Shown here piece after piece: positions 1 to 46,233 of a stretch of 46,233 nucleotides of DNA. Location of the stretch: the sequence record MZ726796.1; one strand, 5' to 3'. The DNA is from Escherichia phage vB_EcoS_ASO78B. How positions within the stretch are numbered: position 1 is the stretch's first letter; the number at the start of each line of letters is the position of its first letter. Below the pieces are notes generated by a model that saw only the letters and a list, made by a program, of their open reading frames with translations, was not told where the DNA came from and did no database searches. The position numbers were made by a program, and so were the translations under genes.

Positions 1-444
1 ATGGCTAATCCAAACCCTGTAATGAAATTTTCCTCTGAGTACCAGCCTGCTGGCAGAGGATTGAGCTACAGAAACAGGCTTATTGAGGCATTAAAGCGTT
101 GCGGGCTTGGGGAGGAGGAATTCCTTGACGCATTCATCAGGACGTCAATCAAGATGACTGAGGAAAACCCGACTCAGGGTGTGCAAATGCTGAAGGAAAT
201 ATTCCTGCGCATCAGTCCTGTGCAGAAAAGTATGGCGCCTCCGGTTAATTTTAAATACCGCAAAGATGCCACGCCAGTTGAGCAGATAGAGGACGTTATT
301 CAATCTGTCTCCAGTGGCGAGCTTCCAATCGATGTGGCGTCTCAGGTTGTATCTATGATTAAGGTTGGCCTTGACGTGAAAGAGTTAACCGAACTCGCCG
401 CGCGCCTTGAGCGACTGGAGAAGTTACTGGAGCAACAACAGTAA
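1..444 (+). CDS. terminase small subunit (putative)
   Basis: 147-aa ORF starting at base 1; N-terminal NPNP..QPAGRG motif of the kind seen in small terminases; sits upstream of HNH and TerL. Confidence 0.55.
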   Translation: MANPNPVMKFSSEYQPAGRGLSYRNRLIEALKRCGLGEEEFLDAFIRTSIKMTEENPTQGVQMLKEIFLRISPVQKSMAPPVNFKYRKDATPVEQIEDVIQSVSSGELPIDVASQVVSMIKVGLDVKELTELAARLERLEKLLEQQQ

Positions 445-547
445 CTGATTTATAATAATTAATGCGGCAAAGGGTAGCTCCCTGCCCGGATTGGTCTCCG
501 GGCTGCCGCATCCAATCAATAGACCGCCTGTAACCGAGGATTCAAGA

Positions 548-1060
548 ATGCCATCATTAAAAGAGCTCGCTCTCACTCAGGAAAGACTTAAGCATCTACT
601 GCATTACAATCCAGATACTGGTGTTTTCACATGGGTTCAGCGCGCCTCAAAAAGCGTAAGAGTTGGTAATTCAGCTGGCAGTAAGAATAAGTCAGGCTAT
701 ATAGATATACGCATCGATAAGTCTTTACACAAAGCTCATCGGCTTGCGTGGCTTTACATTTATGGTGTGTGGCCCAATGGGAAAATAGATCACATCAATA
801 ACGTGAAGACAGATAACAGAATCTGCAACCTGAGAGAAGCAAGTAATAATGAAAACGGATGGAATGTTGGTAAACCATCGACAAATACGTCAGGAGTAAA
901 AGGTGTGAGTTGGGATGCAGAGAAAAATAAATGGAAGGCGCATTGCAGGGTTTTTGGGAAAAAATATACGGTAGGTAGGTTTTCATCACAAGAAGATGCT
1001 GAGAGAGCTGTGGCTGAGTTCAGAAATAAACATCACGGGGAGTTTTGTAATCATGGCTAG
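548..1060 (+). CDS. HNH-AP2 homing endonuclease
   Basis: HNH motif IDHINNVKTDNRICNLREA plus C-terminal AP2-like SGVKGVSW..GRF; GAGGA RBS before ATG 548; stop overlaps TerL start. Confidence 0.8.
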   Translation: MPSLKELALTQERLKHLLHYNPDTGVFTWVQRASKSVRVGNSAGSKNKSGYIDIRIDKSLHKAHRLAWLYIYGVWPNGKIDHINNVKTDNRICNLREASNNENGWNVGKPSTNTSGVKGVSWDAEKNKWKAHCRVFGKKYTVGRFSSQEDAERAVAEFRNKHHGEFCNHG

Positions 1061-2477
1061 AAAAAGACTCTCAAGTGTGGCAATAGAAAAACTCGAACAG
1101 GCAGTTGGAAACTCAACTGCAAAGCCTGAGTCTGCTGTGTTTGGCATTGTTGATCAGCTTCTTGCTGATGGCACGCCTAATGTTATAAAGCGCCTGAAAA
1201 TGACAGCAACAGGCGTCTCGGAAACAAACGAAGAGCCAACAATTCTTATACCAAAGCGAATGGAATTATTGCTTTATCCTCGTCGCTTCAAAGTGTTCTA
1301 TGGGGGCAGGGGGAGCGGAAAGACGGCTAACGTTGTGTCTTACCTGATAGAAAAAGCAAGATTCCGCAATAGTCGCGTTGGTTGTTTCCGGGAGATACAG
1401 AACTCAATCAAAGAATCAAGCTATGCCGAGTTGGTTGATGAGATAAACAGGAAAGGTCATGCTCATGAATATCGCTGCGTGGATGGAGAGATAACACACC
1501 ATACAACGAGATCAAAGTTTGTTTTTCGTGGCCTTTGGCGAAACATAACCGCCATCAAGGGCATGGCTGGCCTTACAGATGTTTTCTGTGAAGAATCCGA
1601 AAATATTAGTCAGGTTTCATGGGATACGCTAATCCCAACAGTCCGTGCCGCTGGCTCTGAAATTATTATTGTTTTTAACCCAAACAAAGAGACGGACCCG
1701 ACATGGACTAACTTTGTTGAGCCTTACATCGACAAGATGGTAGATGGCATATATCAGGATGATGACATTGTTGTTGTTAATGTTAACTACGTCCACAACC
1801 CGTGGTTCACTGAAGAACTTAAACAGCACATGAACCAGATGAAGGCAGTGGATTATGATCGCTATCTGTGGGTGTATGAAGGGTTATTCAACAAGCGTTC
1901 CGAAGAGGCCGTGCTTGGCGGGAAATGGCAAACGCTGGACTTCGAGCCATCTCCCGAATGGGGAGGGCCATATTATGGCATTGACTTTGGTTTTTCTCAG
2001 GATGCAACCGCAGCAACAGAATCATATGTAGAAGATTTGGGCGATGGACGCAGAAACCTGTATATCTATCGTGACTTTGCAAAGGTTGGCCTTGAGATAA
2101 CTGACACGCCGGAAGCGATGAGATCAGCATTCCCAAATTCAGAGAAGTACAGATGGTATGGGGATTGCGCAAGGCCTGAAACAATAAGCCATATACGCCG
2201 ATCTGGATTCGACATTCATCCGTGCGCAAAATGGCCGGGGAGCATTGAGGACGGTATTACGTGGCTGCGTGGGTGTGACAGGATTTACGTACACTCAAGA
2301 TGCAAGCACGTCATTGAAGAGATGACAATGTACAGCTACAAGGTTGATAAGTTAACGGGGAACATACTCCCTGACATAGTTGATAAATACAATCACGCGA
2401 TTGACAGTTTACGCTATGGCCTTGGTGATCACATCGTCCAGCGCGGTAGCGGGATGCTAATCCGGCGCAGGCGATAA
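1053..2477 (+). CDS. terminase large subunit
   Basis: Walker A FYGGRGSGKT near N-terminus, about 475 aa; start taken at MARKRL (ATG 1053), the track ORF begins upstream at 996. Confidence 0.9.
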   Translation: MARKRLSSVAIEKLEQAVGNSTAKPESAVFGIVDQLLADGTPNVIKRLKMTATGVSETNEEPTILIPKRMELLLYPRRFKVFYGGRGSGKTANVVSYLIEKARFRNSRVGCFREIQNSIKESSYAELVDEINRKGHAHEYRCVDGEITHHTTRSKFVFRGLWRNITAIKGMAGLTDVFCEESENISQVSWDTLIPTVRAAGSEIIIVFNPNKETDPTWTNFVEPYIDKMVDGIYQDDDIVVVNVNYVHNPWFTEELKQHMNQMKAVDYDRYLWVYEGLFNKRSEEAVLGGKWQTLDFEPSPEWGGPYYGIDFGFSQDATAATESYVEDLGDGRRNLYIYRDFAKVGLEITDTPEAMRSAFPNSEKYRWYGDCARPETISHIRRSGFDIHPCAKWPGSIEDGITWLRGCDRIYVHSRCKHVIEEMTMYSYKVDKLTGNILPDIVDKYNHAIDSLRYGLGDHIVQRGSGMLIRRRR

Positions 2478-2553
2478 ATCTGCACAACCGCACTTGACCA
2501 ATCTACACCGGGCGCATAGTATAATCTACATCAGGTTTATCGGAGATATCACT

Positions 2554-2760
2554 ATGCGCAGCTATGCAGGATTTACACAGGAGGAAAAAGAGCAGGTTTA
2601 TTCACTGGCACGGGCTGGTGTACCTGATGAGGTGATTTGCCGTCGGTATGACATCAACGAGGATTTCCTGCTGCGCGTTCTGGATGATGTTTTCGTTAAC
2701 CTGCAAGAGAAGCGCGGGTATAAGGGTATCTGCTGCAAGAATGATTTTTTGAGGGGGTGA
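2554..2760 (+). CDS. hypothetical protein
   Basis: 68 aa from ATG 2554 with GGAGAT RBS; upstream in-frame ATG 2494 lies inside the promoter region. Confidence 0.45.
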   Translation: MRSYAGFTQEEKEQVYSLARAGVPDEVICRRYDINEDFLLRVLDDVFVNLQEKRGYKGICCKNDFLRG

Positions 2761-2764
2761 TGTG

Positions 2765-2959
2765 ATGCTTAAGATAAGCAAGATGAGCAACAGAAGCAAG
2801 ATCGGAAGGATTGCTTTACTGCCATTTTTTGTTCCTGTGTGGTTATTGTGGGTTTTCTTTTCTGGTGCAAGGAATTTATTTGAGCGGCTTGAATTTTGGC
2901 AGGCAAAGGTTATGCAAAAATTCCATGATGTCATTGATAAGTGGTTTCCGATTGGTTGA
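2765..2959 (+). CDS. small membrane protein
   Basis: 64 aa, hydrophobic segment IALLPFFVPVWLLWVFF; GAGGGGG RBS; closely follows preceding stop. Confidence 0.4.
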   Translation: MLKISKMSNRSKIGRIALLPFFVPVWLLWVFFSGARNLFERLEFWQAKVMQKFHDVIDKWFPIG

Positions 2960-2967
2960 GGTGTGTG

Positions 2968-3156
2968 ATGATTATTAATGAAACGAAAAATTGCTATGAA
3001 CTGCAAGTTAGTCATAGTTTTGGTGATTACCCTATCATTATGCTTACTTCATTCCGTGAAGGTGATGATGTTAATTCTATCGGCATTGATAAACACCAAG
3101 CCACGCAACTAATCGAAGTTCTGCAGCGCTGGGTTAATGGCGAGGAGATTGAGTGA
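2968..3156 (+). CDS. hypothetical protein
   Basis: 62 aa from ATG 2968 after GAGGTG RBS. Confidence 0.4.
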   Translation: MIINETKNCYELQVSHSFGDYPIIMLTSFREGDDVNSIGIDKHQATQLIEVLQRWVNGEEIE

Positions 3157-3344
3157 TGAGCGTTTATTTTATTCATGCTGAAGCCGTGCTGAGTAACGGC
3201 TGCGTTGCTGAGAAGATAGGAAGAATCGCAATTGCTGATAGCGCCGTGACGGCGTTCGATAAATTCTTTTCTGATGACACGGTTGCCAAGCTACGAGAAC
3301 AAGGTATTGATGTTGTCATTGATAAGCTGGAAAAGGTGGAGTGA
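3156..3344 (+). CDS. hypothetical protein
   Basis: 62 aa; ATG overlaps previous TGA by 1 nt; GAGGAG RBS. Confidence 0.4.
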   Translation: MSVYFIHAEAVLSNGCVAEKIGRIAIADSAVTAFDKFFSDDTVAKLREQGIDVVIDKLEKVE

Positions 3345-3598
3345 TGGACTGGAATAAGGTTGAGCCTAAATACGGGCCGCATGTAATGAACCTTAAGATT
3401 GGTAAAATACATGTTGCAACGGTTTCATACAACTCAGCATCAAGGAACACAGACGAAAAATACCGTTGTTGCGTGCACCTCCCTGGAATGAGGAAGGAGT
3501 TAACAAGCACGAAACACAAAACAGAGGATGAAGCCATGCGCTTCGCGCAAACCATAGTGATTAAGTGGATTCTACTTGCTGGGCTGACATCACAATAA
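3344..3598 (+). CDS. hypothetical protein
   Basis: 84 aa; TGATG overlap with previous gene; AAGGTGGAG RBS. Confidence 0.4.
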   Translation: MDWNKVEPKYGPHVMNLKIGKIHVATVSYNSASRNTDEKYRCCVHLPGMRKELTSTKHKTEDEAMRFAQTIVIKWILLAGLTSQ

Positions 3599-3640
3599 AC
3601 ATCTCTGAGTACAGAAATCGCAACAAGTGACCATGATATA

Positions 3641-3665
3641 ATCCCCTTAATTGGGGATTTTTTTA
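3641..3665 (+). terminator. rho-independent terminator
   Basis: hairpin ATCCCC-TTAATT-GGGGAT followed by T7 run, just upstream of portal ATG. Confidence 0.6.
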
Positions 3666-3675: not shown

Positions 3676-5088
3676 ATGTCAAAAATTGATGCATTAAACG
3701 CCTACATTCGCGACCGCGTGGCGAACAATAACCGGGCGATTCAGCAACAACGGCTTTGCGCTGGCGGGAAGAATCTCGACCAGAAGCGTGAGTTCATGTG
3801 GAAGGAGCTGGGCTACCCGCAGGAAATCACCGCAGAGATGTTCCGCTATGCCTATGAGCGACATCCAGCCGCCGCTGCTGGTATTAACCGCATTATTAAT
3901 AAATGCTGGCAGAAATACCCTGAAGTGGTAGAGGATGGTGAGGATGATAAGAACTCAACGCAGTGGGAGCTGTCCATCAACGACATGATGAAACGTGCTT
4001 ATCCGTTCATCAAAGAAGCTGACAAGCGCAACGCCATCAACCGCTATTCCGCCGTTATCCTGCAAATCCGCGATGGTAAGCAATGGAGTGAGCCGGTAGA
4101 CATCACCAAAACGCGCCGCATTAAAGATAAATCCATCGTCCGCTTTATTCCGGTGTGGGAAGAGCAACTACGCGTCAGTGCGTGGAATAACGACGAAACC
4201 AGCGAAGACTACGGAATGCCTGAGATGTACGAATATCAGGAAAGCGCCGTGGAAGACTTCGGCAGCGACGGCAAGCCTGAGCGTTCCGTGCAGATTCACC
4301 CTGACCGCATCATCATTCTGGCTGAGGGTAGTTTTGATGGCAGTATGTTCAGTGGCATCCCGATGCTGCGCGCTGGTTACAACAGCCTTATAGACATGGC
4401 TAAGGTTTCCGGTAGCTCCGCAGAAGGCTTCCTGAAGAATGCGAGCCGCCAGCTGGCAGTTAACTACACGAAGGATAACGTAACGCCAGCAAGCCTTGCT
4501 CAGTCAATGGGTGTCGATGTTGAAGAACTCACCGACATCATGAATGAGAACATTGAGGCACTGAATTCAGGCATCGACGCCGCTATGTTCACAATGGGGG
4601 CTGATGCAAAAGTTCTCGCCGTGACTCCAGCCGACCCGAAACCCACATGGGAAGTGGCTGCCAACCAGTTCGCCGCATCAATGGCGCTTCCATTCACCGT
4701 CATTTTCGGGCAGCAAACCGGACGCCTTGCGAGCGACGAAGACAAGATGCAGGAGGCGATGACCGCTAAGCAACGTCGCGAAACATGGGTTGACTATGTC
4801 ATCTCAATGTTCGTTGAGCGCATGATTCAGTTCGGCATCGTCGATAAAGCCCCGGCAAATGGCTACAAGGTTAAGTGGGATGACCTGCTGGCGCCATCAG
4901 AGCTGGATAAAGCGGAGTTGCTGGCTAAACTCGCCACTGCGAATAAGTCATTCTTTGATGCTGGTCAATCTGCGTTGTTGACCGTTGATGAGGCTCGCGG
5001 CATGGTTGGTATGGAGCCGATTGAACTCGACGAAAGCTATCGCGAAGACACACCACCGGAAGATGAAAATGAAGATAATCCGGTTTAA
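3676..5088 (+). CDS. portal protein
   Basis: 470-aa ORF between terminase and MuF-like head morphogenesis gene; size and position typical of siphovirus portal. Confidence 0.7.
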
Positions 5089-6019
5089 TGCCCGCCTTCC
5101 GCAACCGCGCATATCGCAGAGTCTGACAGACCCGTTAGGCGCTGCGACTCGCCTGTCAAAGATGGATAAGGTGATAACGCGCAAATACAAACAACTCAGG
5201 AATCGTGCGCTTGGGTTGTTCCGCACTATTCCGCATAGTCAGACTAACGCAGAATCAAGCGACATGTATTTCTATGATTTCAGTAGTGCGCGGGCAGCCA
5301 CGTTCATGGATGAGTTACAGGCGCTGATTGACGAGATTCTTCTGGAAGGTGATGATTTCGGTCACGGCAGGCTGTGGGCTAACGTGTTCATTGGTGATGC
5401 ATATCAGGCCGGCACACAGAAGGCAAACTCAGAGCTATCAAGCCTGTCTCCTGTTTATGCTGAGCAGAGGCCGATTGCCGCGATACTCTACAGTGAGCCT
5501 TATCTGAACCGGCTCCAGCTGGCTTATACGCAAGGATATTCAGACTGGCGCGGATTGAGTGATTATTCCCGTCAGCAACTGGCATCTGTCATCATGGAAG
5601 GCATTGCTCGTGGCGCAAATCCTCGTAACGTTGAAGCTGACATTGTTAAGCGTGTTGATGTGTCGCACAGCTACGCGAAGCAAATCGCACAGACGGAAAT
5701 TACCGGAACTCTGCGGCAGGCTAACAGGCGAGAAGTCATTGAGGCTCGCGAAGAGTTGGGTATTGAGACGGTGATGCTGTGGCAGTCGGCATTGATGCGT
5801 ACAACCCGTCAGACACACGCGGCAAGACATGGACGGTTTTACACGCCAGAAGAGATTGACACGTTCTATAGTGAGAATGGCAACAGATATAATTGTCACT
5901 GTGCGCAAATTCCAACACTGTTAATGGATGGCAAGCCAGTCATTCTTGAGTCATCACAGGAAAGGCTTGATAAGCAGCGTGAGGCTTGGCAATCGGCAAA
6001 CAAAAAGCCCTCTAAGTGA
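5069..6019 (+). CDS. head morphogenesis protein (Mu F / SPP1 gp7 family)
   Basis: C-terminal [17 protein letters not shown]...NCHC motif as in Phage_Mu_F domain; start overlaps portal 3' end. Confidence 0.75.
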
Positions 6020-6035
6020 GGGCTTGGTTTTATCT
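6006..6035 (+). terminator. rho-independent terminator
   Basis: hairpin AAGCCCTC-TAAGT-GAGGGCTT then GGTTTTA; stop codon lies in the loop. Confidence 0.6.
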
Positions 6036-6102: not shown

Positions 6103-6726
6103 TTAATCATCCAGTTTAACGCCGGGAATCTTGCCTGCTGCGATGGCGTCGTAAACAGCCTCTGCCTCATCTGATCGATTGTGTTGGCGTTCAGCCTTCG
6201 TCAACGCACCATAAATTGCATCACAAATTCTCTCGCGCTTCTTATCTGCTTCTGTGCGGATGGGGCGAAATTTCAGCGTGCCACCATACGATGAAAATTT
6301 AACATACTGGACACCCTCAAAGGTATCGCACAGCATCACCACGCCTTGCGTCCCTACAATGTAATCAATTTTGCACTTCCACCATGTTTTCCCGGCATTG
6401 AGAGAGTATTCGCATTCGCACCCCACTTGCGGGACGCCTTCGCCGTTCCATGTTGGCTTTTGCGATGCGGCGAGTGCTGCTTTATATTGCCAATAGGTCA
6501 CTATCGACTCCCTGTGGTCGCAAGATAAAGGTATGTCCTCAATTCCATGCCAGTAATGCACAAGGCTATTCCCAGTGTGATGTTTCCATGAAAATCCATC
6601 ATAGTGTGGATTATTCGTGTCCCATACACACAGCGAACCATCATCATCTTGAGTAATTGACAGAGCATTATGAGGCCACCCGCCACGCTTAGGTAATTCT
6701 TTAACTAACAGGTCGATAAGTTTCAT
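6103..6726 (-). CDS. hypothetical protein (accessory island 1)
   Basis: 207 aa, Trp/Cys-rich; GGAGGAA RBS; last gene of a 5-gene minus-strand operon. Confidence 0.5.
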   Translation of the reverse strand: MKLIDLLVKELPKRGGWPHNALSITQDDDGSLCVWDTNNPHYDGFSWKHHTGNSLVHYWHGIEDIPLSCDHRESIVTYWQYKAALAASQKPTWNGEGVPQVGCECEYSLNAGKTWWKCKIDYIVGTQGVVMLCDTFEGVQYVKFSSYGGTLKFRPIRTEADKKRERICDAIYGALTKAERQHNRSDEAEAVYDAIAAGKIPGVKLDD

Positions 6727-6947
6727 TTTGTTCCTCCATCAGAAAATATTTCTTTATATTCACCCTCAACCTCGTACAGTTCACCCAGCTTAAATACCTC
6801 ATACGAGTTTTGACCGCCTTCGCGCCATGCGTGAACCTCATTCAGCTTTTCAGCCACCGCATTAGCCTCCTGTTCAGTTGGATAAATAGCAACAACATTT
6901 GATGAAACGCCGCATTCGATGCAACCAACATTAAATACAAGCCACAT
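6723..6947 (-). CDS. hypothetical protein
   Basis: 74 aa; stop overlaps start of downstream gene. Confidence 0.45.
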   Translation of the reverse strand: MWLVFNVGCIECGVSSNVVAIYPTEQEANAVAEKLNEVHAWREGGQNSYEVFKLGELYEVEGEYKEIFSDGGTK

Positions 6948-6949
6948 AA

Positions 6950-7213
6950 TTATTCTCCCAATGCCTTATTAACCACCGCACGCGCATTATCCGGAGCGCG
7001 ACGCTTGCTTGATGCTGTCCAGACTTTGCCGGAATGGTCGTCGTAGATTTCCAGTAGCTGCTGGAGTGCGGCGAGCATGGTCTTGTTATTGTCGTGACGA
7101 TACCCAACAGAAAACCCAAGCCAAAGCCAGTCCTTTTCTCTATCCGTCATGCCGCCAAAGTCAACAGAATCGAACCATTTGCTAAATAATTGGTGCACTT
7201 CGCGCTGCGTCAT
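6950..7213 (-). CDS. hypothetical protein
   Basis: 87 aa from ATG (MTQREV..) with GAGG RBS; track ORF extends to an upstream GTG. Confidence 0.45.
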   Translation of the reverse strand: MTQREVHQLFSKWFDSVDFGGMTDREKDWLWLGFSVGYRHDNNKTMLAALQQLLEIYDDHSGKVWTASSKRRAPDNARAVVNKALGE

Positions 7214-7221
7214 CGCCAACC

Positions 7222-7365: not shown

Positions 7366-7368
7366 GAT

Positions 7369-7779: not shown

Positions 7780-7811
7780 CTTCATCACCTCATTCGTCAC
7801 TTGATGTAGAT

Positions 7812-7840: not shown

Positions 7841-7884
7841 TACCTGTTGTGATAGAATTAATCATTATTTGAACAGGAGGCAGA

Positions 7885-39303: not shown

Positions 39304-40254
39304 ATGTTTTATTGGGAAGAGATACAACAAAAGATGATTGGAAATTGGGAGGCGGCATTACTGTCAATAGTCAACATAGACAGGAAAATTTTTTCTGGGA
39401 AACATCAACCATGCCCTCATTGCATGGGGGTTGATCGGTTCCGCTGGGATAATCACTTCGAAATCAAAGGCGATGGCGGCGCAATATGCAATCAGTGCGG
39501 GTCAGGTAGCGGCATGAACTGGCTGATGAAACTTTCAGGCATGAACTTCCCTGAAGCACTAGAGGCGCTTGGTGGATTCCTGAATATGCACCCACGCGAA
39601 AAGCTGGAGGCAATCAGGAAGGAGTTGCCGAAGATAAATTACAACGATGACTTCATCACCGAGCAGGAAGTCGCCGCAATCATGTCTAAAACTACGCGTG
39701 TCTCGATGAATGAGTGGACTTTGACAAATGGTATTGGTTGTGACGTTAACGTCGTCAGAGGCAAATCTGGAGAGCTTATTGCGGTTGAGATGGTGCGTGC
39801 TGATACAATGAAGCCGTGCAACGTAGCATTCATTGGCATGGATGGTGATTCATTCAGAACGTTTTTCCGCGCAGGATACAACAAGGACTCAGCCATCAAC
39901 GGCAAACTCACACGCGGCGCGATAAGCACAATCGGAGAAGATAATGGAAAGTTCATTTATCTGGTATCTGATTATGCCGATGCGTGGAAGTGCCATTACT
40001 TCACTGGCGCGCATGTCTGGTGCTGCTGGTATCCTGAAAACATGTGGGAAGTGGTGCGTTCTGTTAGCGATGAGATGAAGGCACGGTTACGCTGCATAGT
40101 TAATTATAAATTTGACGAACTTTGTGCTGCGGAAAATGCAGGACTTCCGGTGATGTTGCCTGATGATGCTGACACTATCAGGATGGCGAAGCGAATCAGA
40201 AGAAAGATTTATGACGCTGGCGAGTTGATAGAAAAAATGTCAGTAAGCAGATAA
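39304..40254 (+). CDS. DNA primase (zinc-ribbon N-terminus)
   Basis: GKHQPCPHCMGVDRFRWDNH...CNQCGSGSGMNWLMK matches the primase zinc-binding ribbon pattern; only + strand gene inside the minus-strand module. Confidence 0.65.
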   Translation: MFYWEEIQQKMIGNWEAALLSIVNIDRKIFSGKHQPCPHCMGVDRFRWDNHFEIKGDGGAICNQCGSGSGMNWLMKLSGMNFPEALEALGGFLNMHPREKLEAIRKELPKINYNDDFITEQEVAAIMSKTTRVSMNEWTLTNGIGCDVNVVRGKSGELIAVEMVRADTMKPCNVAFIGMDGDSFRTFFRAGYNKDSAINGKLTRGAISTIGEDNGKFIYLVSDYADAWKCHYFTGAHVWCCWYPENMWEVVRSVSDEMKARLRCIVNYKFDELCAAENAGLPVMLPDDADTIRMAKRIRRKIYDAGELIEKMSVSR

Positions 40255-40257
40255 AAG

Positions 40258-40283
40258 AAACCCTCCAATAGGAGGGTTTTTGT
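40258..40283. terminator. bidirectional terminator
   Basis: AAACCCTCC-AATA-GGAGGGTTTTT. Confidence 0.7.
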
Positions 40284-40699
40284 TATTCCTTGAACTCTGG
40301 CGCTTCAGTCCAGAAGGCTACATTTCGCAGCGACTTACCCGTGTGATTGCACCAGTATATGCCTGAGTCATCATACTTCGCAGTAACCTTTACGCGATCA
40401 GCATCAATAACAACAACCTCCTGTCCATCTTTAGGGTCGAAAAGACGCGCATCTTTCCAGTTAGCAATCTCATTAAGTGAAAGAATGACATAACCAGGAA
40501 GATAAGAGCCGACATCAGCGATGTGAACTATAGTTCTCTCTGTTCTCTCTCCTGTGTAGTCTCCATTCCACTCATAAAGAATAATCGTGTCTCCAACCTT
40601 AAAATCACGATCGTTCTTTCTTAGTTCCGCCTTCTTGTGTCCGGTGACTACAGGCCAGAAGTGCTCAGGTAAAATTTTAAGTTCGTGTGTTTTGCTCAT
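40283..40699 (-). CDS. DUF3850 / ASCH-like (PUA-fold) domain protein
   Basis: N-terminal HELKILPEHF..V.TG.KKAELRKNDRDFKVGD matches the DUF3850 pattern as recalled; about 60-aa C-terminal extension. Confidence 0.55.
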   Translation of the reverse strand: MSKTHELKILPEHFWPVVTGHKKAELRKNDRDFKVGDTIILYEWNGDYTGERTERTIVHIADVGSYLPGYVILSLNEIANWKDARLFDPKDGQEVVVIDADRVKVTAKYDDSGIYWCNHTGKSLRNVAFWTEAPEFKE

Positions 40700-42276
40700 T
40701 ACAACCCCCTCATAAATCTCATGCGCTTAACGGCAGCAGAAAGATAATTTCTAACAGTTGAGTTCATCCGCAGACCATCCCATGAACCATCACTACACAT
40801 CTTAATTGCTCTTGGATTATCCCTGTCCAGCATTAGTGGTGAATGTTTGTTCTCCTCAATGGCAAGAAGAACTTCATAAACAAATTTATCCGGCGTTAAT
40901 GTGATATTATTCGAGTCAGCAGAATTGATTATCTTTTCAACTCTGTCACGGCACAGCTTGTTCTTTATAACAGACAAATAAGGCGTTTTAATGAATGCCT
41001 GCGATTCACAAATTCGCTTTATTTTTTCAACAATGTTCGACCACTCAGTATTCTCAAGCCCATCAAATGCCTGTTCACCCTCAAGGAATCTTTTCAGCCC
41101 TGCGAGGTGTTCAAGAACCGTGAGATAACCCCACTCGATATGCTCCGTCGTCACTGATGGTGTCATCCCCCGCCGACTTGACAGATCGGTATACGCCGCC
41201 AGAGTTGCAAGATCGACAATCATTAGACCCATACGAGGGATAACATCGCCAACAACACCATCGCAATCACCAAGCTCACTTTCCAGTTTCATAGACAGAT
41301 ATCTGTGCAGTTTTTTCGCATTATCATCAGCCCACACAACGTTAGTTTTCGCGGTAAGAACCCTACCTTTCCACTCATTGATTATTTTTCTTGAAAGCGT
41401 ACCACTCACTTCCACATCCTTCATTGCTGGCATTTCCTCACCAGCAAGATGACCAAGCTGGAACAGCACGCGCCCCATACCGCCATCCTTCTGCCATGAA
41501 CGCGCAGCATCTATTCCCTGCTCTGGCGTGACAGTAATCAGCGGAACAAATTTTGCGTTTTCAATTCCACCGTCTTTTGTTGCAAGTTCGTACTCATTCA
41601 TTGCCGACTTTAGCGCGCGCCCAACGCTGTGGTCCATCATCGCAAGGCGCTTATAATCTATGACTCCTTTCCCATCATCGCCACCAGTAAGTGGCACTAT
41701 CCATCCCTCAGCACTTGCTGCCGCCATGATGCGTTTTGGGTTTTGTTCCCAAGTAAGGTTTTCAAGCAACTCCTTGATTATTGGTCTGTTAGGCACCCAC
41801 ACTCCGCCATCAGTTAGGCCTCTATACCACGCCATCGTACCGCCAAGATATGCATTGCGCGGGTTGTTCCAGTCTTCAAGATGTTGCTTGTCATCGTTCA
41901 CAACGTAGAGCAAAGACCCACCTCCGGCAATCAGGTCTAACTGCATCTGTTTCGTCGATGTTGATTTAGATGCACAAACTCTGGAACCTATTCCCAGCTC
42001 ATTGGCATATGCCCTGACGAAACTCACCGGTGCACCCTTACCTGCACCAGAGCGAGCTACCAGAAATATGCCAGTATTGCAGATACTACCTGTTGGACCA
42101 ATCAAGTATCGTCCAGCCATCGCCTGAGCAAGGCCCAAAGCGCCAGTTAATCGATATCTTTCCCCTCCCTCACGGCGCTCAAACCCCCTTGCGATCTCAT
42201 CCATAAACTCACCAAGTGCCCCGGGAGTCTCCCGATTTATGCCCATAGCCAGAGACTCAAAATCAATCGAACTCAT
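40699..42276 (-). CDS. large hypothetical protein (525 aa)
   Basis: start taken at MSSIDF (ATG 42276) with GGAGGGTG RBS; GAGKG segment is not a canonical Walker A; ATGA-coupled to the DUF3850 gene. Confidence 0.5.
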   Translation of the reverse strand: MSSIDFESLAMGINRETPGALGEFMDEIARGFERREGGERYRLTGALGLAQAMAGRYLIGPTGSICNTGIFLVARSGAGKGAPVSFVRAYANELGIGSRVCASKSTSTKQMQLDLIAGGGSLLYVVNDDKQHLEDWNNPRNAYLGGTMAWYRGLTDGGVWVPNRPIIKELLENLTWEQNPKRIMAAASAEGWIVPLTGGDDGKGVIDYKRLAMMDHSVGRALKSAMNEYELATKDGGIENAKFVPLITVTPEQGIDAARSWQKDGGMGRVLFQLGHLAGEEMPAMKDVEVSGTLSRKIINEWKGRVLTAKTNVVWADDNAKKLHRYLSMKLESELGDCDGVVGDVIPRMGLMIVDLATLAAYTDLSSRRGMTPSVTTEHIEWGYLTVLEHLAGLKRFLEGEQAFDGLENTEWSNIVEKIKRICESQAFIKTPYLSVIKNKLCRDRVEKIINSADSNNITLTPDKFVYEVLLAIEENKHSPLMLDRDNPRAIKMCSDGSWDGLRMNSTVRNYLSAAVKRMRFMRGL

Positions 42277-42568
42277 CAATACACCCTCCATACGCGCAAG
42301 AATTTACCCGGGATAACACCATGTTTCACCGTTAACACAGCACCCACCCTGTCAGCCTCAATTTTTAGCGCTTTCTGAAGTGACGCCACTGTCATCTGAA
42401 AACCTCGCTCTATGTCGTATGCGTAGCACCCATCTCTGCCACCAATCAAAATTGAAGTTGAATACCCGTTCTCAAAGTAAAACTGACACCCATCAGGAAC
42501 GGTAAGATTATTTATCACGTCGTTAGCAAGCGATGTCGTAACAGGGAATATCGGCGCGCAACTCATAC
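42276..42568 (-). CDS. hypothetical protein
   Basis: about 97 aa from MSCAPIF; 1-nt overlap with the 525-aa gene. Confidence 0.4.
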
Positions 42569-42573
42569 TCACC

Positions 42574-42804
42574 TCACTCAACTCGCTTAATGTGCAAAAC
42601 TTCATCGAAATATGAGCACGTTCTGAATTTCATCCCGAAATCCTCACCAACCCTTCCGAGACACGCGCGAAATCTTTCAACAGACAGCCCTTTATCTGCA
42701 ATATCCTCATAAGAAATCGAATTAACCTGACCAACATCAATATGTTTTGCAATGCGATACACGAACTCCATCTTTGAACCGTCACGATACATTTTGTTTC
42801 TCAT
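42574..42804 (-). CDS. hypothetical protein (first gene of the minus-strand module)
   Basis: 76 aa from MRNKMY with GGAGG RBS; next to the AT-rich control region. Confidence 0.4.
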   Translation of the reverse strand: MRNKMYRDGSKMEFVYRIAKHIDVGQVNSISYEDIADKGLSVERFRACLGRVGEDFGMKFRTCSYFDEVLHIKRVE

Positions 42805-42967
42805 AGTAACCTCCATCCGCATTCCAATAGTAACTATAGATAAAAAATAAAATTAACGCAACACAAAACAGGTCTAACCAGCAACAACAGCTACCACAAT
42901 TAACAACTGGTAAGACCACCATCTCATATCTGATATGTGTGGATGGTGCCTGTCGTTCAATTTGCAC

Positions 42968-43400
42968 TCGATTTTTACCTAATTTACCGTATATTTATTG
43001 GTCAGTTTTTTGCATAACTAATTGATTTATATGATTTTACCGGTTTTACCGGAACTCTAATGAGTATTTTCATCATTGAGAGTGTCAGTATATTAATTGG
43101 TCTAATTTTTAAAGAACTCCAATAAAATCAATATATTAATATAAGAAAGTAACTTACTTACTTATATAGGATTTACCGGGTAAAACCGGTAACTCCTCCG
43201 CAGCCCGCGTCATTACTGGATTGATTTTTACCACCTGTAGGTAAATACAGTAGTTTTTAAGTCAGGATTGTTTTTGTAAGATGTTGATTACCGGTACTTT
43301 ATTTGAAAAACCGGGATTTACCGGGTTTTTGTGGTGTGATTAATAATCGCGCAATTGGTCATGTTTCACCAGAACCCACTAATGCGACACCTGAAAATCA
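42968..43400. repeat. AT-rich divergent control region with ACCGG iterons
   Basis: at least 7 copies of TTTACCGG/ACCGG[GT] at 43034-43051, 43171-43190, 43285-43296, 43306-43329; inverted TTTACC..GGTAAA at 43225-43245; no ORF. Confidence 0.6.
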
Positions 43401-43401
43401 T

Positions 43402-43430
43402 ATTGACGTAGAGTCACAACTGATGTAGAT
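43402..43430 (+). promoter_or_regulatory. sigma70 promoter for the right-end + strand genes
   Basis: TTGACG, 17-nt spacer, TAGATT, 30 nt upstream of ATG 43461; both hexamers sit within copies of the recurring motif. Confidence 0.5.
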
Positions 43431-43460
43431 TGAACTCATCGAAACAACGAGGGTGAAGAG

Positions 43461-43646
43461 ATGAGCAAAGAAAGCACGTACAGCATCGACCAGATGAAGT
43501 TATTCAGCGATATATGCATGGCATTATCACAACAGGTTCCGAGCCTTCCTGCTGACATGCGTTCAAATGCAATCATTGATGCAGCAAACATGATTTGCGA
43601 GGCTTATGCGATAACTGAAGATGAATATAAGGATTCGAAGAAATGA
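43461..43646 (+). CDS. hypothetical protein
   Basis: 61 aa; GAGGGTGAAGAG RBS. Confidence 0.4.
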   Translation: MSKESTYSIDQMKLFSDICMALSQQVPSLPADMRSNAIIDAANMICEAYAITEDEYKDSKK

Positions 43647-43738
43647 CAGGCGCAACACTCGGGCTTATCGCCAGCCTGGTTATCGTGGCATTCATCATTA
43701 TCGCAGTGGCAGTTTCAAAATCAGGGTATAAGGAGTGA
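43643..43738 (+). CDS. small single-TM peptide (31 aa)
   Basis: Hand-translated MTGATLGLIASLVIVAFIIIAVAVSKSGYKE; ATGA-coupled to the upstream gene. Confidence 0.3.
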   Translation: MTGATLGLIASLVIVAFIIIAVAVSKSGYKE

Positions 43739-43741
43739 AAA

Positions 43742-43900
43742 ATGAGCAACAAACCAATCCAACCAACAGAAGAAATGATTGAGGCGGGTATCCGTGAAGT
43801 TATTGAAAACTTCGATATCGACTACCTCACTGATGATGAGCTAAGCGATGCCGTTGTGTTCATCTGGCAGGCAATGTATCAGGCGCACGTGGAGAAATAA
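43742..43900 (+). CDS. small acidic hypothetical protein (52 aa)
   Basis: Hand-translated; AGGAG RBS 6 nt upstream. Confidence 0.35.
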   Translation: MSNKPIQPTEEMIEAGIREVIENFDIDYLTDDELSDAVVFIWQAMYQAHVEK

Positions 43901-43903
43901 CAA

Positions 43904-44086
43904 ATGGCAAAAACCATCTATCGTCGCGAGAAGCTGGAACAAGAACTCGGACACGTTGGTGCGCAGAACTTCATGAACAAGCAGGCACGCAATGCAATGG
44001 AATCTATCCGCGTAAATCGAGTTGTGCGCGTGTTTAATGGTGAAGGTAAGCGCAGAGTAATGGATGAGCTGATTATCGTATTCTGA
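43904..44086 (+). CDS. hypothetical basic protein
   Basis: 60-aa track ORF. Confidence 0.4.
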   Translation: MAKTIYRREKLEQELGHVGAQNFMNKQARNAMESIRVNRVVRVFNGEGKRRVMDELIIVF

Positions 44087-44122
44087 CATCGATTCAGCGC
44101 TTTTATTTTTAATGGTGATGAT

Positions 44123-44356
44123 ATGGCAAAAGTGAAAACATACGAGTTCTGGTTTGTGCAGAACAAAATGTATGCGAGCAAAACAATCAAGAAAGTGCGT
44201 TGGTGGAACAAGTGGTTAATCATGTCCGGCTGCATCGTGCTGGAAAAGTGCAAATTCAAAGCGATTGATATCACTGATGAGGACGCGCTCACAATCGCAA
44301 AGATTGAGTTTGAGGAAGATGGCTATTACGAAGAAATCATGGGGGTTAGGGTATGA
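44123..44356 (+). CDS. hypothetical protein
   Basis: 77-aa track ORF. Confidence 0.4.
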   Translation: MAKVKTYEFWFVQNKMYASKTIKKVRWWNKWLIMSGCIVLEKCKFKAIDITDEDALTIAKIEFEEDGYYEEIMGVRV

Positions 44357-44697
44357 GTGAAGTAAAGCGTTATGACATGAGGGTTTCATTTGGTGGAGTT
44401 GAATCTTACGAATCACCATGTGGTGATTATGTTGACTACGATGACTACGCGGCACTGCAAGCTAAATGCGCGGCGCTTGCGGCGGAGAATGCTGGGCTGA
44501 AGACAACACACCCTCAACCGTTCGGACCTGAGATGATGAAGGCTCTTGATGCGTATGAGAAGCATCAGGATGAAGTGCCGGAGGTTGGAATGCTTGATGC
44601 ATTTTTCATCTTGCGCGACAGCATCCGTGTTAAAACCCCAGCCACCGATGCTTTCCTTGCTGAAGTGCGGGCGCAGGGGGTTGAGAGGGCACCTTAA
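44353..44697 (+). CDS. hypothetical protein
   Basis: 114 aa; ATGA overlap; Ala-rich coiled-coil-like segment. Confidence 0.45.
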   Translation: MSEVKRYDMRVSFGGVESYESPCGDYVDYDDYAALQAKCAALAAENAGLKTTHPQPFGPEMMKALDAYEKHQDEVPEVGMLDAFFILRDSIRVKTPATDAFLAEVRAQGVERAP

Positions 44698-44745
44698 TGA
44701 AATATATGACGGTGTAATTGTTAATAAGAAAGAAGGAAACTCAGC

Positions 44746-45612
44746 ATGATCACTATTACCAAAGAGCGACTGCTGACAATCCAGCAGTGGCGCGAAACAT
44801 ACGGACCGGGTAGCAACGTTGTACTGCCAGCAGAAGAAGCGGAAGAACTGGCACGAATTGCTCTGGCAGCGCTGGAAGTCGAGCCGATAGGTTTCCGTTG
44901 CAGGCGCAATGATAACCTTGGTGATTGGAGTTACGTATATCATCGAGAGCCAGATGATTTTGAGCGCAAACATTTAGTGATAGAGGGTATTTACGCCGCC
45001 CCTCCAGCGCAAGTAGTACCGGAAGAAAAACCAATGCCTAATCCTCTTAGCATGTACGCGGTTGATGCTGTTGCCGCTATTGCAGAGGTGAGAGGCTGGA
45101 ACGCCTGCCGTGCAGCTATGCTTCAGTCCGGAAACTTTCGGGAAAACAAGAATTCGTCAACCAATAATTTTAGGGAAATCGCGGAAACGTCAACCAACTA
45201 TCCGGTAATTCCTAGTGAGGTGTTGTCCGCAATCCAGAAGGTTGCCAAGATTCGTGCCGATTTCGATGATTTTGACGGTGACAGGCGAGGTATCGGTGAT
45301 TGTCTGGATGAGGCTGAGCAAGAGCTTATCGTTACCATTAACAAATATGCCAGTCAGTTGGCAGCAGAACCGATAGCGACTAATGACGTTCGAGAGCAAA
45401 CAGCCGTTCCGCCAGTTCCTGTAATACAGGCTGATGTCGCGCAGGCAATTGAAAAACTCAAACGGAAATTAGTGGAATGCAATCGCTATAACTACTGCGA
45501 AGATGCAGTTAAGGGCGTTGAGTATGCCTGCCGCGCTGCCATGCTTCAGCGCTCAGAGCCTGTAACAGATAACACCAACCAGCAATTCGAAAGCCTGGCC
45601 AAAAGCGAATAG
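44746..45612 (+). CDS. hypothetical protein with internal repeat
   Basis: 288 aa; motif ACRAAMLQ occurs twice (about residues 118 and 265). Confidence 0.5.
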   Translation: MITITKERLLTIQQWRETYGPGSNVVLPAEEAEELARIALAALEVEPIGFRCRRNDNLGDWSYVYHREPDDFERKHLVIEGIYAAPPAQVVPEEKPMPNPLSMYAVDAVAAIAEVRGWNACRAAMLQSGNFRENKNSSTNNFREIAETSTNYPVIPSEVLSAIQKVAKIRADFDDFDGDRRGIGDCLDEAEQELIVTINKYASQLAAEPIATNDVREQTAVPPVPVIQADVAQAIEKLKRKLVECNRYNYCEDAVKGVEYACRAAMLQRSEPVTDNTNQQFESLAKSE

Positions 45613-45775
45613 CTACCCGTTCATATTAATTATCAGTGCGCTCTATGTGGCGCACGCTTTAGTGGAGGAATACATATGACCAGACACCAACGGCGCCGAT
45701 ACACCACTGGCGCTAAAATATTCCTTGCTGTTTATCTGATGGCATTGGTTGCTGCTATCGCAGGAGTTTTGCATT

Positions 45776-45955
45776 ATGTTTAATGATATCAGCGACGCAA
45801 TGCAAAACATGTGGGAACGCTACTGGAACAGCATGAAGACATGCCACTACATGATGGTGCAGATAGGTAATTACATTGAGGTTGTGCCTGATAGTGGTGT
45901 GCATGACATTAAGTGCATGTGCTCAACGAGGGATTATGCTAATGCAAACAACTAA
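45776..45955 (+). CDS. hypothetical protein
   Basis: 59 aa from ATG 45776 with AGGAG RBS; a 35-aa TM peptide ORF at 45676-45783 precedes it. Confidence 0.3.
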   Translation: MFNDISDAMQNMWERYWNSMKTCHYMMVQIGNYIEVVPDSGVHDIKCMCSTRDYANANN

Positions 45956-46115
45956 AGCCAATGTTTGGCAGCTCGCAAAGCAGCACGAATTAGACGATTT
46001 TATCGCGAAGGTTGCAAAGGCATTCCCTGACGCGCTTGAAATCGTTCATGTGCAGACTCGCAATGAAAACGCATGGTGCTATGCTGGCAAGCGTGATAAT
46101 GATGGTGTACAATAA
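45942..46115 (+). CDS. hypothetical protein
   Basis: 57 aa from ATG 45942 with GAGGGA RBS. Confidence 0.3.
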   Translation: MQTTKANVWQLAKQHELDDFIAKVAKAFPDALEIVHVQTRNENAWCYAGKRDNDGVQ

Positions 46116-46160
46116 GCGCATAACCACCATTGCTTTCACTTATATCATCACCCAACCTTT

Positions 46161-46188
46161 AACCCGCCTTGTGCGGGTTCTTTTTTAT
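46161..46188 (+). terminator. rho-independent terminator
   Basis: AACCCGC-CTTGT-GCGGGTT then T6. Confidence 0.7.
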
Positions 46189-46233
46189 CTGTGTTAAACT
46201 AACGACATCGAAATACGAAAAGACGAAAACAGA

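Follow-up and report, generated by a model that had tools for sequence, protein, structure and literature searches.

Does the 46,233-nucleotide stretch of Escherichia phage vB_EcoS_ASO78B analysed here (the window) hold a complete phage genome, and how is a genome organized whose coding strand changes so often? Our analysis makes it highly probable that the window is the whole genome of an obligately lytic, block-built siphophage of the Skatevirus cluster; it measures 46,233 bp and has ~86 genes for proteins as well as 2 tRNAs. This is an ordinary, already well-known class of virulent enterobacterial tailed phage, and the alternating-block architecture has already been annotated in many relatives. 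Gene calling combined a simple in-house model with homology, and a handful of small ORFs, that at 22207-22605 among them, are doubtful.

Megablast searches with the two halves of the genome matched 483 and 770 phage records. The best matches were Skatevirus-cluster genomes, with 88-91% identity across 56-78% of the query half. The window is collinear with many complete siphophage genomes of this cluster, and its gene order and orientation pattern agree with those annotated for VSt472, Bas81, ZCEC08 and CECAV_048. Skatevirus-cluster phages are reported to be strictly virulent small siphoviruses with genomes of 46-48 kb (PMC11990801, PMC12965234). Because only ~60-78% of its DNA aligns to any one relative, at ~90% identity, ASO78B represents a distinct species. 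Its placement in the genus Skatevirus proper appears borderline, since ZCEC08, the best among the full relatives compared, is ~66-69% similar against a genus convention of 70%.

The largest share of either genome half covered by a single database record is about 78%, as might be expected if the window were a mere fragment or a mis-joined assembly with a coincidentally tidy start and end. We consider this extremely improbable, because the uncovered parts are discrete, cassette-sized islands within a collinear backbone, and 46.2 kb and the gene set fit relatives of 44-49 kb. Moreover, when the end of the window was artificially joined to its start, query positions 7-974 formed one alignment with 966 nt of phage Sf11 (92.9%), and the junction is likewise unbroken in the permuted relatives DS8, SeLz-2 and others. 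Since the joined ends align as one piece in permuted relatives, no sequence is missing from the genome, in agreement with the preliminary description, which had called it complete. The window ends are thus a deposit convention and not physical termini, the linearisation point being by convention the first gene upstream of the large terminase. A related phage reportedly has a terminally redundant, completely permuted genome with neither a polymerase nor an identifiable TerS (PMC11769527), and headful packaging is the mode we would predict for ASO78B.

Also borne out is the earlier claim that integrase and repressor are lacking. Among the 87 called proteins, Pfam and PHROGs searches found no integrase, serine recombinase or CI-type repressor, and no integrase, resolvase, Peptidase_S24 or HTH_3 domain. 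Every ORF of 150 aa or more has been accounted for, with no integrase or recombinase domain in any of them. No prophage copy was found in 5,426 complete E. coli genomes and no plasmid copy in the 72,556 plasmids of PLSDB; the longest match in these two sets amounted to 1% of a 25-kb query. Among GTDB genomes (one per species) the only close match was a 20-kb scaffold consisting of phage DNA throughout. These results argue against the alternative of a temperate phage, or of a prophage that has excised, with an integrase and a repressor that escape recognition or are encoded beyond the window. As the window closes on itself, there is no outside to hold missing genes, and neither flanking bacterial DNA nor an integrase can lie beyond it. 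Some genes do point towards a temperate phage, namely a superinfection-immunity gene (24099-24293), NinX-, Gp49- and DUF551-type genes common to lambdoid or P22-like prophages, an Erf recombinase, a MarR-like regulator, and gene g37, which is ~92% identical to E. coli prophage genes. However, relatives are described as strictly virulent (PMC12965234, PMC11476292), and we regard the temperate alternative as very unlikely and already largely refuted. An integrase-free plasmid-prophage in the style of P1 or N15 seems less likely still. Such an element could be kept through the ParB/KorB-like DNA-binding protein encoded at 17951-18763, and the repeat-rich non-coding region described below could serve it as origin or centromere, but there is no ParA partner, plasmid Rep initiator, protelomerase or repressor, no PLSDB plasmid shares more than 1% of the 25-kb query, and ParB-like proteins are annotated in all relatives, which are reported to be lytic. 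We infer for ASO78B a virulent lifestyle, with no lysogeny genes.

The preliminary description had counted about eleven changes of transcription direction. There are in fact 16 strand switches (14 without the small tRNA block), eight convergent (+ to -) and eight divergent; it is the strong terminator-like hairpins that number eleven. The genome accordingly divides into 17 transcription blocks of alternating orientation. Rightward blocks comprise the packaging, head, lysis, connector and tail genes, and small accessory genes in three clusters. Among the structural genes lie six short leftward blocks, none of whose genes matches a structural family (0 of 21), and two long leftward blocks hold the recombination and replication genes.

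A hairpin was found at all eight convergent junctions and at none of the eight divergent ones, so that the earlier statement that nearly every switch is marked by a terminator holds for 8 of 16. Three more hairpins lie between co-directional genes. The last of these confirms that the window ends at a terminator, a GC hairpin followed by a T-run 54 nt before the end.

3640..3659, + strand: terminator-like hairpin, co-directional, directly before the portal gene; stem sequence varies among relatives with pairing kept
6005..6025: bidirectional terminator hairpin, convergent junction 1
9315..9333: terminator hairpin, convergent junction 2
16364..16386, + strand: terminator-like hairpin, co-directional, immediately 3' of the major capsid gene
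16977..16999: bidirectional terminator hairpin, convergent junction 3
21713..21733: bidirectional terminator hairpin, convergent junction 4
23372..23391: bidirectional terminator hairpin, convergent junction 5
27486..27513: bidirectional terminator hairpin with 12-bp stem, convergent junction 6
34215..34234: bidirectional terminator hairpin, convergent junction 7
40258..40279: bidirectional terminator hairpin, convergent junction 8
46161..46179, + strand: hairpin and T-run between the early cluster and gp01/packaging genes

Strong structures of the form A-run/GC-hairpin/T-run are far more frequent than expected (12 observed against 1.4; none of 30 dinucleotide shuffles gave more than 4). These 12 are among 15 perfect stems of at least 7 bp, against 5.2 +/- 2.4 in shuffles. 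The hairpins are kept at syntenic sites in relatives, one with compensatory stem changes. The single GC-rich hairpin at each convergent junction, with its A-run and T-run flanks, would serve as an intrinsic terminator for transcription arriving from either side, and such bidirectional terminators would insulate neighbouring blocks from each other.

The divergent junctions have a signal of their own. The element tTGAYGTAGATT is present at five of the eight and as variants at two more, while the junction at 39242-39303 lacks it. Ten copies were found against 0.5 expected, all intergenic; nine precede the first gene of a block by 37-83 nt, and the tenth, at 2525-2533 (- strand), has no gene downstream. 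The motif is conserved in all close loci and nearly absent from distant ones. It contains -35-like and -10-like hexamers and may be a sigma-70 promoter for the leftward and the early rightward blocks.

7780..7884: divergent promoter region with an inverted tTGAYGTAGATT pair (7802+, 7839-)
10727-10735, - strand: promoter element of block D
19136-19174, - strand: two promoter elements of block F
22568-22596: leftward promoter TTGACA-N17-TAGATT, block H
24329-24357, - strand: promoter of block J
43403..43431, + strand: promoter TTGACG-N17-TAGATT upstream of the rightward early operon

The last of these putative promoters pairs two 12-mers at an offset of 17 nt, and the same offset is found in all four full relatives.

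Packaging (TerL), portal, head, tail and lysis genes were all present by Pfam and PHROGs matches, as had been claimed. The first of them are as follows.

1..444, + strand: gp01, ATG ORF of 147 aa, all-helical with a long C-terminal helix
548..1060, + strand: homing-type endonuclease overlapping the TerL start (Pfam HNH_3, 2e-12; AP2, below the curated cutoff)
1053..2477, + strand: terminase large subunit (Pfam Terminase_3, 2e-35, and Terminase_3C; 82-99% identity to relatives)
3676-5088, + strand: portal (Pfam Phage_portal_3)
5069-6019, + strand: Mu-F-like head morphogenesis protein (Pfam Phage_Mu_F)
7885..9325, + strand: lysis cassette of lysozyme-like fragment, endolysin, holin and Rz-like spanin (relatives' annotation)
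13406-14818, + strand: prohead core/protease-like protein
14818-15288, + strand: head decoration protein
15291-16361, + strand: major capsid protein
19223..21710, + strand: head-tail connector, completion and tail terminator genes (Pfam DUF7370, Phage_tail_terminator_3; phrog_5)

An ATG ORF does begin at base 1, as described, but its label as a small terminase is unsupported: gp01 is a candidate by position, and Pfam, PHROGs, a PDB sequence search and a fold search gave no support for that identity. The endonuclease next to it has a paralogue, g72, at 38720-39241. The portal/Mu-F region (3676..6019) also matches phrog_758, and the lysis cassette matches Pfam Phage_lysozyme, DUF7940 and DUF2514 and the endolysin family phrog_90. 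The capsid module (13406..16361) matches phrog_760, phrog_766, phrog_771 and Pfam DUF6260 (4e-111); the name of the homologue follows PMC11769527.

The tail genes complete the structural set.

22648..23364, + strand: major tail protein (95-98% identical to relatives' annotated major tail proteins)
24407-25114, + strand: DUF6246 protein (Pfam DUF6246)
25114-27486, + strand: tape measure protein (Pfam TMP_3)
28337..34211, + strand: distal tail genes, with NlpC/P60 minor tail protein, J-like protein and tailspike (phrog_384, 396, 329, 469 and 4217; Pfam NLPC_P60, Tail_spike_N)
29649-32135, + strand: J-like tail protein
32175-34211, + strand: tailspike

The receptor-binding part of the tailspike (window 32526-34230) has 93-94% DNA identity to E. 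coli O78 phages, which makes E. coli O78 the likely host. This identity is to the O78-specific tailspikes of phages phiHAO78-1 and vB_EcoS_AVIO78A (the latter a Nonanavirus), whose N-terminal anchor and remaining genome belong to a different lineage from ASO78B; this combination indicates horizontal exchange of the receptor-binding module.

Between the structural genes lie the accessory clusters and short inverted blocks.

2554..3598, + strand: variable accessory cluster of five small ORFs, TerL to portal
6103..7779, - strand: block B, five genes, one with DUF7448
9357..10691, - strand: block D, five genes, one with DUF6378
10795..13211, + strand: nine small accessory genes (Pfam Lar_restr_allev, DUF7301; phrog_1687)
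17004..19107, - strand: block F, RusA-like/clamp-like protein, ParB-like protein and three others (phrog_3007; Pfam HTH_ParB, KorB)
21733..22097, - strand: block H, small gene g52 (phrog_35112, 1e-38), tRNA-Arg(tct) and tRNA-Ser(gct)
23394..24293, - strand: block J, DUF551, NinX-like, one other and superinfection immunity protein (Pfam DUF551, Phage_P22_NinX, Imm_superinfect)
27512..28162, - strand: single-gene cassette g61 (phrog_6095 'amidase', weak KilA-N)
43461..46115, + strand: cluster of ten small rightward genes, half of which are variable

Among the products of the 10795..13211 cluster are a Lar-like restriction alleviation protein and a wHTH protein resembling MarR, and the cluster at 43461..46115 probably consists of early genes. 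For g05, g08 and g15, comparison of the region with about 25 relatives showed no counterpart, and g84 has none in the four full relatives. The g61 cassette, absent in four compared relatives and ~94% identical in KFS-SE2, KFSST1, LPSTLL and Vi II-E1, appears to be a presence/absence island within the genus. ParB-like, MarR-like and superinfection-immunity proteins are more typical of temperate elements, although annotations of relatives that are reported to be lytic list them too. According to the preliminary description accessory genes cluster in the inverted segments. They do fill the six short blocks, but at least as many are on the + strand, where there are at least 24 accessory ORFs (2554-3598, 10795-13211 and 43461-46115). 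Variable genes make up 13 of 31 genes on the - strand and 14 of 55 on the + strand, an enrichment that is not significant (86 genes, Fisher p=0.15). For the two long leftward blocks the description fails, since both hold core replication or recombination genes.

34245..39241, - strand: recombination/replication block (Pfam SSB, ERF, DUF3799, ResIII/Helicase_C, HNH_3; phrog_824, phrog_99)
39304..40254, + strand: zinc-ribbon type DNA primase (Pfam Zn_Ribbon_Prim; phrog_510)
40283..42804, - strand: block P, ASCH/DUF3850 protein, primase-like 525-aa protein and two others (Pfam DUF3850; phrog_3022)
42805..43460: non-coding AT-rich region of 656 nt with six clustered TTACCGG repeats (43037-43324)

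The first block encodes SSB, Erf, a PDDEXK exonuclease, a small phrog_824 protein (named VRR-NUC in relatives' annotations), a helicase and an HNH endonuclease. Block P is an alternative module found only in some relatives. The full replication gene set claimed earlier is present as far as replication and recombination genes go, but the ASO78B genome has no DNA polymerase gene. Because primase, helicase, SSB, Erf and exonuclease are encoded and a polymerase is not, replication would rely on the host polymerase. The cumulative GC-skew minimum falls inside 42805..43460, a candidate replication origin or regulatory region.

Compared with the Skatevirus cluster (Salmonella phages Skate, VSt472, IME207 and KFS-SE2, Escherichia phages Bas77-81, ZCEC08 and HC6, and Shigella phage Sf11), ASO78B has the same gene order and genome size, the same alternating-block architecture (16 annotated switches in Bas81 and 20 in VSt472), core proteins ~90-99% identical, terminator hairpins and promoter 12-mers at syntenic sites, and the same lack of lysogeny genes. 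Bas81 has two tRNA genes at the same locus, other relatives one or none. ASO78B differs from this cluster in a cassette complement of its own, an Erf-type recombinase module and a tailspike receptor-binding domain of O78 type. It also lacks the relatives' small inverted block between TerL and g04, of which the promoter motif at 2525-2533 is left. The Roufvirus-like phages of Klebsiella, Aeromonas and Vibrio (proposed 'Roufvirinae', e.g. KlebP_265) share a related TerL (~91% identical in loci L015-L025) and the promoter 12-mer, and reportedly have a permuted genome with neither a polymerase nor an identified TerS (PMC11769527); however, most of their other proteins are just 40-70% identical, and their tailspikes target capsules. 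Lastly, the short inverted blocks resemble the morons of lambdoid phages, which are autonomous promoter-gene-terminator units inserted between core genes: they lie between structural genes, have a promoter-like element upstream and a hairpin downstream, and differ in content among relatives. Unlike lambdoid morons, they belong to a virulent phage, run opposite to the structural genes, and are multi-gene units at fixed positions conserved in the clade instead of sporadic single-gene insertions.

The window is a complete genome and a new species-level member of a well-sampled, known cluster of lytic phages. When each half was compared by megablast with 50,697 phage records, both halves matched hundreds of related genomes. 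The nearest relatives, which the preliminary description had left to such a search, are siphophages of the Skatevirus cluster, with 88-91% identity over 56-78% of the query. These best matches have Salmonella, E. coli, Shigella and Klebsiella as hosts and include VSt472, IME207, Sf11, Bas77-81, ZCEC08, HC6 and CECAV_048; base 1 of the VSt472 and IME207 records is base 1 of the window. Gene order is collinear with that of four annotated relatives, which have the core structural and replication genes in common with the window, and core proteins share 82-99% identity with their counterparts in the relatives. By blastn against four full relatives (VSt472, Bas81, ZCEC08 and CECAV_048), 87% of the window bases align to at least one and 58% to all four. 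Of the full relatives compared, ZCEC08 is the best: it aligns over ~73-78% at ~89-90% identity, or ~66-69% similarity. The ICTV convention asks for at least 70% intergenomic nucleotide similarity within a genus and at least 95% within a species; this estimate clearly falls short of the latter and is borderline for the former. The genome size (46,233 bp, compared with 44.6-49.5 kb in relatives) lies within the ~44-49 kb of the cluster, and a windowed GC of 0.41-0.52 agrees with its GC content of about 46-48%. The BASEL paper describes the cluster as small siphoviruses of 46-48 kb with one tailspike downstream of a J-like protein (PMC11990801); for the present phage we infer siphovirus morphology from the tape measure, major tail protein and tail terminator genes.

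Completeness was assessed at the ends of the window, by joining the last 500 nt to the first 500 nt and searching the product against the phage collection. The junction is unbroken in Sf11 (966 nt aligned to query positions 7-974 at 92.9%) and likewise in one piece in DS8, SeLz-2, ECO111 5-P and others, relatives that were deposited in other permutations. Because the junction aligns uninterrupted in these permuted relatives, the window is a closed genome, as the preliminary description had supposed; by this alignment nothing is missing or duplicated at the junction, and start and end would be a convention of deposit. Bacterial flank or an integrase beyond the window, either of which was to count against that description, cannot arise in a sequence that closes on itself. 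[quoted passage not shown] Junction contiguity, a large terminase (TerL) of the Terminase_3 family (Pfam) and the analogy with KlebP_265 lend indirect support to headful (pac) packaging of a permuted genome.

Genes were called with a codon model trained on the window itself and then curated against the relatives, which gave 87 ORFs, one of them doubtful, and a coding fraction of 94%. All 87 proteins were scanned against Pfam (E<=0.01) and 50 of the 87 against PHROGs.

Gene content of the window
Packaging: TerL
Head: portal, Mu-F-like head protein, prohead core/protease-like protein, decoration protein, capsid protein (DUF6260)
Connector and tail: connector proteins, tail terminator, major tail protein, DUF6246 protein, tape measure, distal tail proteins including NlpC/P60, J-like protein, tailspike
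Lysis: endolysin, holin, spanin
Replication and recombination: SSB, Erf, PDDEXK exonuclease, helicase, two primase-like proteins, small protein named VRR-NUC in the relatives' annotation
Host interaction: Lar, superinfection immunity, NinX, DUF551, Gp49-family protein, ParB-like, MarR-like
Other: two HNH_3+AP2 endonucleases
tRNAs (- strand): Arg-tct and Ser-gct

Rfam and tandem-repeat searches of the window returned only the two tRNAs. The window had been credited with a full set of packaging, head, tail, lysis and replication genes. The first four are present; for replication the statement goes too far, because no DNA polymerase gene was found among the called proteins in the Pfam and PHROG scans. 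KlebP_265 is likewise reported to be without one (PMC11769527). The doubtful ORF, 22207-22605 (+), was dropped from the statistics: its PHROG and tblastn support is weak and partial, and a predicted leftward promoter lies inside it. Among the lysis genes, ORF 7885-8163 (92 aa) covers no more than the C-terminal half of the Phage_lysozyme profile and is possibly a remnant, while the neighbouring ORF 8153-8617 (154 aa) matches the phrog_90 endolysin and no Pfam family.

The preliminary claim that integrase and repressor are lacking holds. No integrase, recombinase (serine recombinases included), Peptidase_S24/LexA-like peptidase or CI-type/HTH_3 repressor was found in the 87 proteins (Pfam, E<=0.01), and every ORF of at least 150 aa in the window is accounted for. 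There is no prophage copy in 5,426 complete E. coli genomes, where the longest match, a Gp49-family gene common to prophages, covers 1% of a 25-kb query and the capsid module finds only four weak matches (67-75% identity). Nor is there a copy in 72,556 plasmids, with a maximum coverage of 1% of a 25-kb query. The chromosome, plasmid and GTDB searches matched only small shared genes (Gp49 family, SSB), with one exception: among the GTDB genomes (one per species) the only close match is a 20-kb Pantoea eucrina scaffold, NZ_JAOBTT010000003.1. This scaffold is Skatevirus-like phage DNA from end to end with no host flank, is collinear with window 5659-25179 and encodes a capsid protein 96% identical to that of the window; it is likely to be phage carry-over or contamination in the Pantoea assembly. 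Members of the cluster are described as strictly virulent, without integrase, repressor or recombinase, and failed lysogen formation is reported for relatives (PMC12965234, PMC11476292). Gene content and database searches thus support the reading of an integrase-free phage that is probably lytic, and the same searches argue against a plasmid-prophage lifestyle, the ParB-like gene notwithstanding.

The curated map consists of 17 blocks of alternating orientation.

Transcription blocks of the window
1-6019, + strand
6103-7779, - strand
7885-9325, + strand
9357-10691, - strand
10795-16974, + strand
17004-19107, - strand
19223-21710, + strand
21733-22097, - strand
22648-23364, + strand
23394-24293, - strand
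24407-27486, + strand
27512-28162, - strand
28337-34211, + strand
34245-39241, - strand
39304-40254, + strand
40283-42804, - strand
43461-46115, + strand (probable early cluster)

The 16 switches between them exceed the number of about eleven first counted, which was an undercount. Nearly every switch had been thought to carry a GC-rich hairpin flanked by A and T runs, and for one of the two kinds of junction this is exactly so. A strict scan (perfect stems of at least 7 bp, at least 4 GC pairs, loops of 3-6 nt, with dinucleotide shuffles as control) found 15 hairpins compared with 5.2 +/- 2.4 in shuffles; with A-/T-rich flanks there were 12, compared with 1.4 expected and a shuffle maximum of 4. 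Eleven hairpins are terminator-like, with stems of 7-12 bp, at least 4 GC pairs, A/T-rich flanks and energies of -10.6 to -21.7 kcal/mol. They stand at all eight convergent (+ to -) junctions (6005, 9315, 16977, 21713, 23372, 27486, 34215 and 40258) and at none of the eight divergent (- to +) ones, hence at exactly half of the switches. Because each stem has an A-run before it and a T-run after it, the convergent hairpins are read as terminators on both strands. The other three are co-directional: 3640 follows the accessory cluster g04-g08 (genes are numbered along the window) just before the portal gene, 16364 lies right behind the capsid gene, and 46161 separates the early cluster from gp01, the first gene. 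By structure and placement all eleven are predicted intrinsic (Rho-independent) terminators. The hairpins are kept at syntenic positions in relatives. At 3640-3659 the stems differ across the window and four relatives' loci (AATCCCC/GGGGATT, AATCCCTC/GAGGGATT and AATCCCATC/GATGGGATT) with pairing retained, and such compensatory change is consistent with a functional structure. A generic terminator scan was replaced by the strict one; its criteria were too lax, so that its totals did not rise above shuffles, and it missed the hairpins at 16364, 16977 and 27486. Immediately after the capsid-gene hairpin lies a gene of the Gp49/Sf6-gp66 family (16404-16784), whose ~92% DNA identity to genes of prophages present in hundreds of E. 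coli chromosomes points to a probable recent exchange with temperate phages.

Divergent junctions have promoter-like sequences in place of hairpins, with a recurring element among them. Its core, TGAYGTAGA, occurs 10 times in the window (0.5 expected) within a fuller consensus, tTGAYGTAGATT, outside of which the flanks are not conserved. The copies lie at 2525-2533, 7802-7839, 10727-10735, 19136-19174, 24331-24339, 36380-36388 and 43404-43429. Some stand alone, and others form tandem pairs (offset 17 or 30 nt) or an inverted pair. All ten are intergenic, and nine precede by 37-83 nt the gene that opens a leftward block, the lysis block or the rightward early cluster; the tenth, 2525-2533 (-), has no downstream gene in the window. 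The exact core is present at five of the eight divergent junctions and variants at two more (near 22568-22596 and 28190-28215), leaving 39242-39303 without a copy in this window. The early cluster is preceded by two copies with a 17-nt offset, which together make TTGACG-N17-TAGATT (43403-43431), and the same offset is found there in all four full relatives. The four full relatives have 12-14 copies per genome, and every partial locus of the Skate/Rouf type has 2-9, but loci whose TerL is only distantly related have 0-1. The element is thus kept throughout the Skate/Rouf clade, the comparison taking in 25 loci (L001-L025) and the Pantoea eucrina scaffold. We infer a clade-specific class of promoter or operator. 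The element could serve as a class of early promoter or as an operator for a regulator that the phage encodes, and would then activate the insulated leftward cassettes together with the early rightward operon, a single regulon opposed to the late structural operons.

Accessory genes had been said to cluster in the strand-inverted segments. In support, the 21 genes of the six short inverted blocks in the structural half are all without a match to a structural family. On the other side, at least 24 accessory ORFs lie on the + strand in three clusters (2554-3598, 10795-13211 and 43461-46115), and the two long - blocks consist of core recombination and replication genes. Genes with no good orthologue in at least three of the four full relatives were counted as variable. 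The - strand has 13 among its 31 genes and the + strand 14 among 55 (odds ratio 2.1, p=0.15); the short inverted blocks have 10 among 21 and the rest of the genome 17 among 65 (p=0.10). The clustering is therefore a tendency and not a rule. The alignment to relatives that had been proposed for locating variable islands resolved the non-aligning remainder into discrete, cassette-sized islands across the window. The main ones are g05-g08; g11-g15; g41; g52 with the tRNAs; g55 and g56; g61; the tailspike receptor-binding domain; the HNH gene g72; the g74-g77 module; g78-g80; and g83 and g84. The island gene g61 has ~94% identity in KFS-SE2, LPSTLL and Vi II-E1. Between TerL and g04 the relatives have one or two small leftward genes (VSt472 gp04; Bas81_0004/0005) that the window lacks at 2478-2553, where it nevertheless keeps the leftward promoter motif 2525-2533(-); the interval looks as if an inverted cassette had been lost there.

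The window was thought to begin at the start codon of a small terminase (TerS) gene. A + strand ORF, gp01 (1-444, 147 aa), does start at base 1, upstream of TerL with a homing-type HNH gene between, and it has the position and size of a small terminase (immediately upstream of TerL, about 100-200 aa). It matches no known TerS family: there is no Pfam match, the only PHROG is phrog_9747 of 'unknown function', a PDB sequence search returned designed helical repeats only, and all 79 homologues are hypothetical or without a name. Its AlphaFold model (24 sequences; pLDDT 74.8, pTM 0.35) is all-helical with a long C-terminal helix; a TerS-like fold was defined by an N-terminal HTH, a helical oligomerisation core and a C-terminal barrel. 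Because every TerS test was uninformative, it is position that gives gp01 this label. According to the literature on this clade, its TerS is yet to be identified (PMC11769527). That the 12-mer is an undescribed clade-specific regulatory site, and gp01 with it an unrecognised TerS family of the Skate/Rouf clade, is a tentative proposal that we hold to be rather doubtful. Among close relatives gp01 occurs as two very divergent alleles (98-100% vs 35-45% identity) while TerL is constant at 82-99%; the adjacent HNH gene and the portal (~97% vs 69%) likewise have two (21 loci, L005-L025). The packaging module is therefore a mosaic of allelic replacements. HK97-style cos packaging by way of the TerL-adjacent HNH gene was rejected: this gene is an HNH_3 + AP2 homing-type endonuclease with a paralogue elsewhere in the genome, and relatives have a different allele or none there. 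The interval that separates gp01 from the HNH gene contains a perfect GC-rich hairpin without a T-run (484-504, GCCCGGA...TCCGGGC), conceivably a packaging recognition site.

The receptor-binding part of the tailspike (32526-34230) is 93-94% identical to that of the E. coli O78 phages phiHAO78-1 and vB_EcoS_AVIO78A, which belong to other lineages than the present phage (AVIO78A is classed as Nonanavirus), and 80-85% identical to tailspikes of large ~150-159-kb E. coli/Salmonella phages (PhaxI, FEC14). This indicates probable module exchange between lineages, and identity to the O78-phage tailspikes makes E. coli O78 the likely host. O78 is an avian-pathogenic serogroup, and the prediction may be of interest for phage therapy or biocontrol. 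The leftward replication block is separated from the rightward early genes by 656 nt of non-coding, AT-rich DNA (42805-43460) with several inverted repeats and, inside 290 nt, six TTACCGG repeats. It coincides with the cumulative GC-skew minimum and is a candidate replication origin.

What the check adds is a corrected map: 17 putatively insulated blocks, eight predicted bidirectional terminators, a conserved 12-mer that is a probable promoter or operator, and a candidate origin. Its discovery value is small, hundreds of cluster phages having already been sequenced, and the deposited annotations of the cluster already show its lytic lifestyle, its mosaic cassettes and the alternation of gene orientation. 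By these annotations Bas81 has 16 switches, the same number as the window, whereas VSt472 has 20. The alternating architecture is therefore a conserved and already annotated property of the clade, with an exact number of switches that varies with cassette content.
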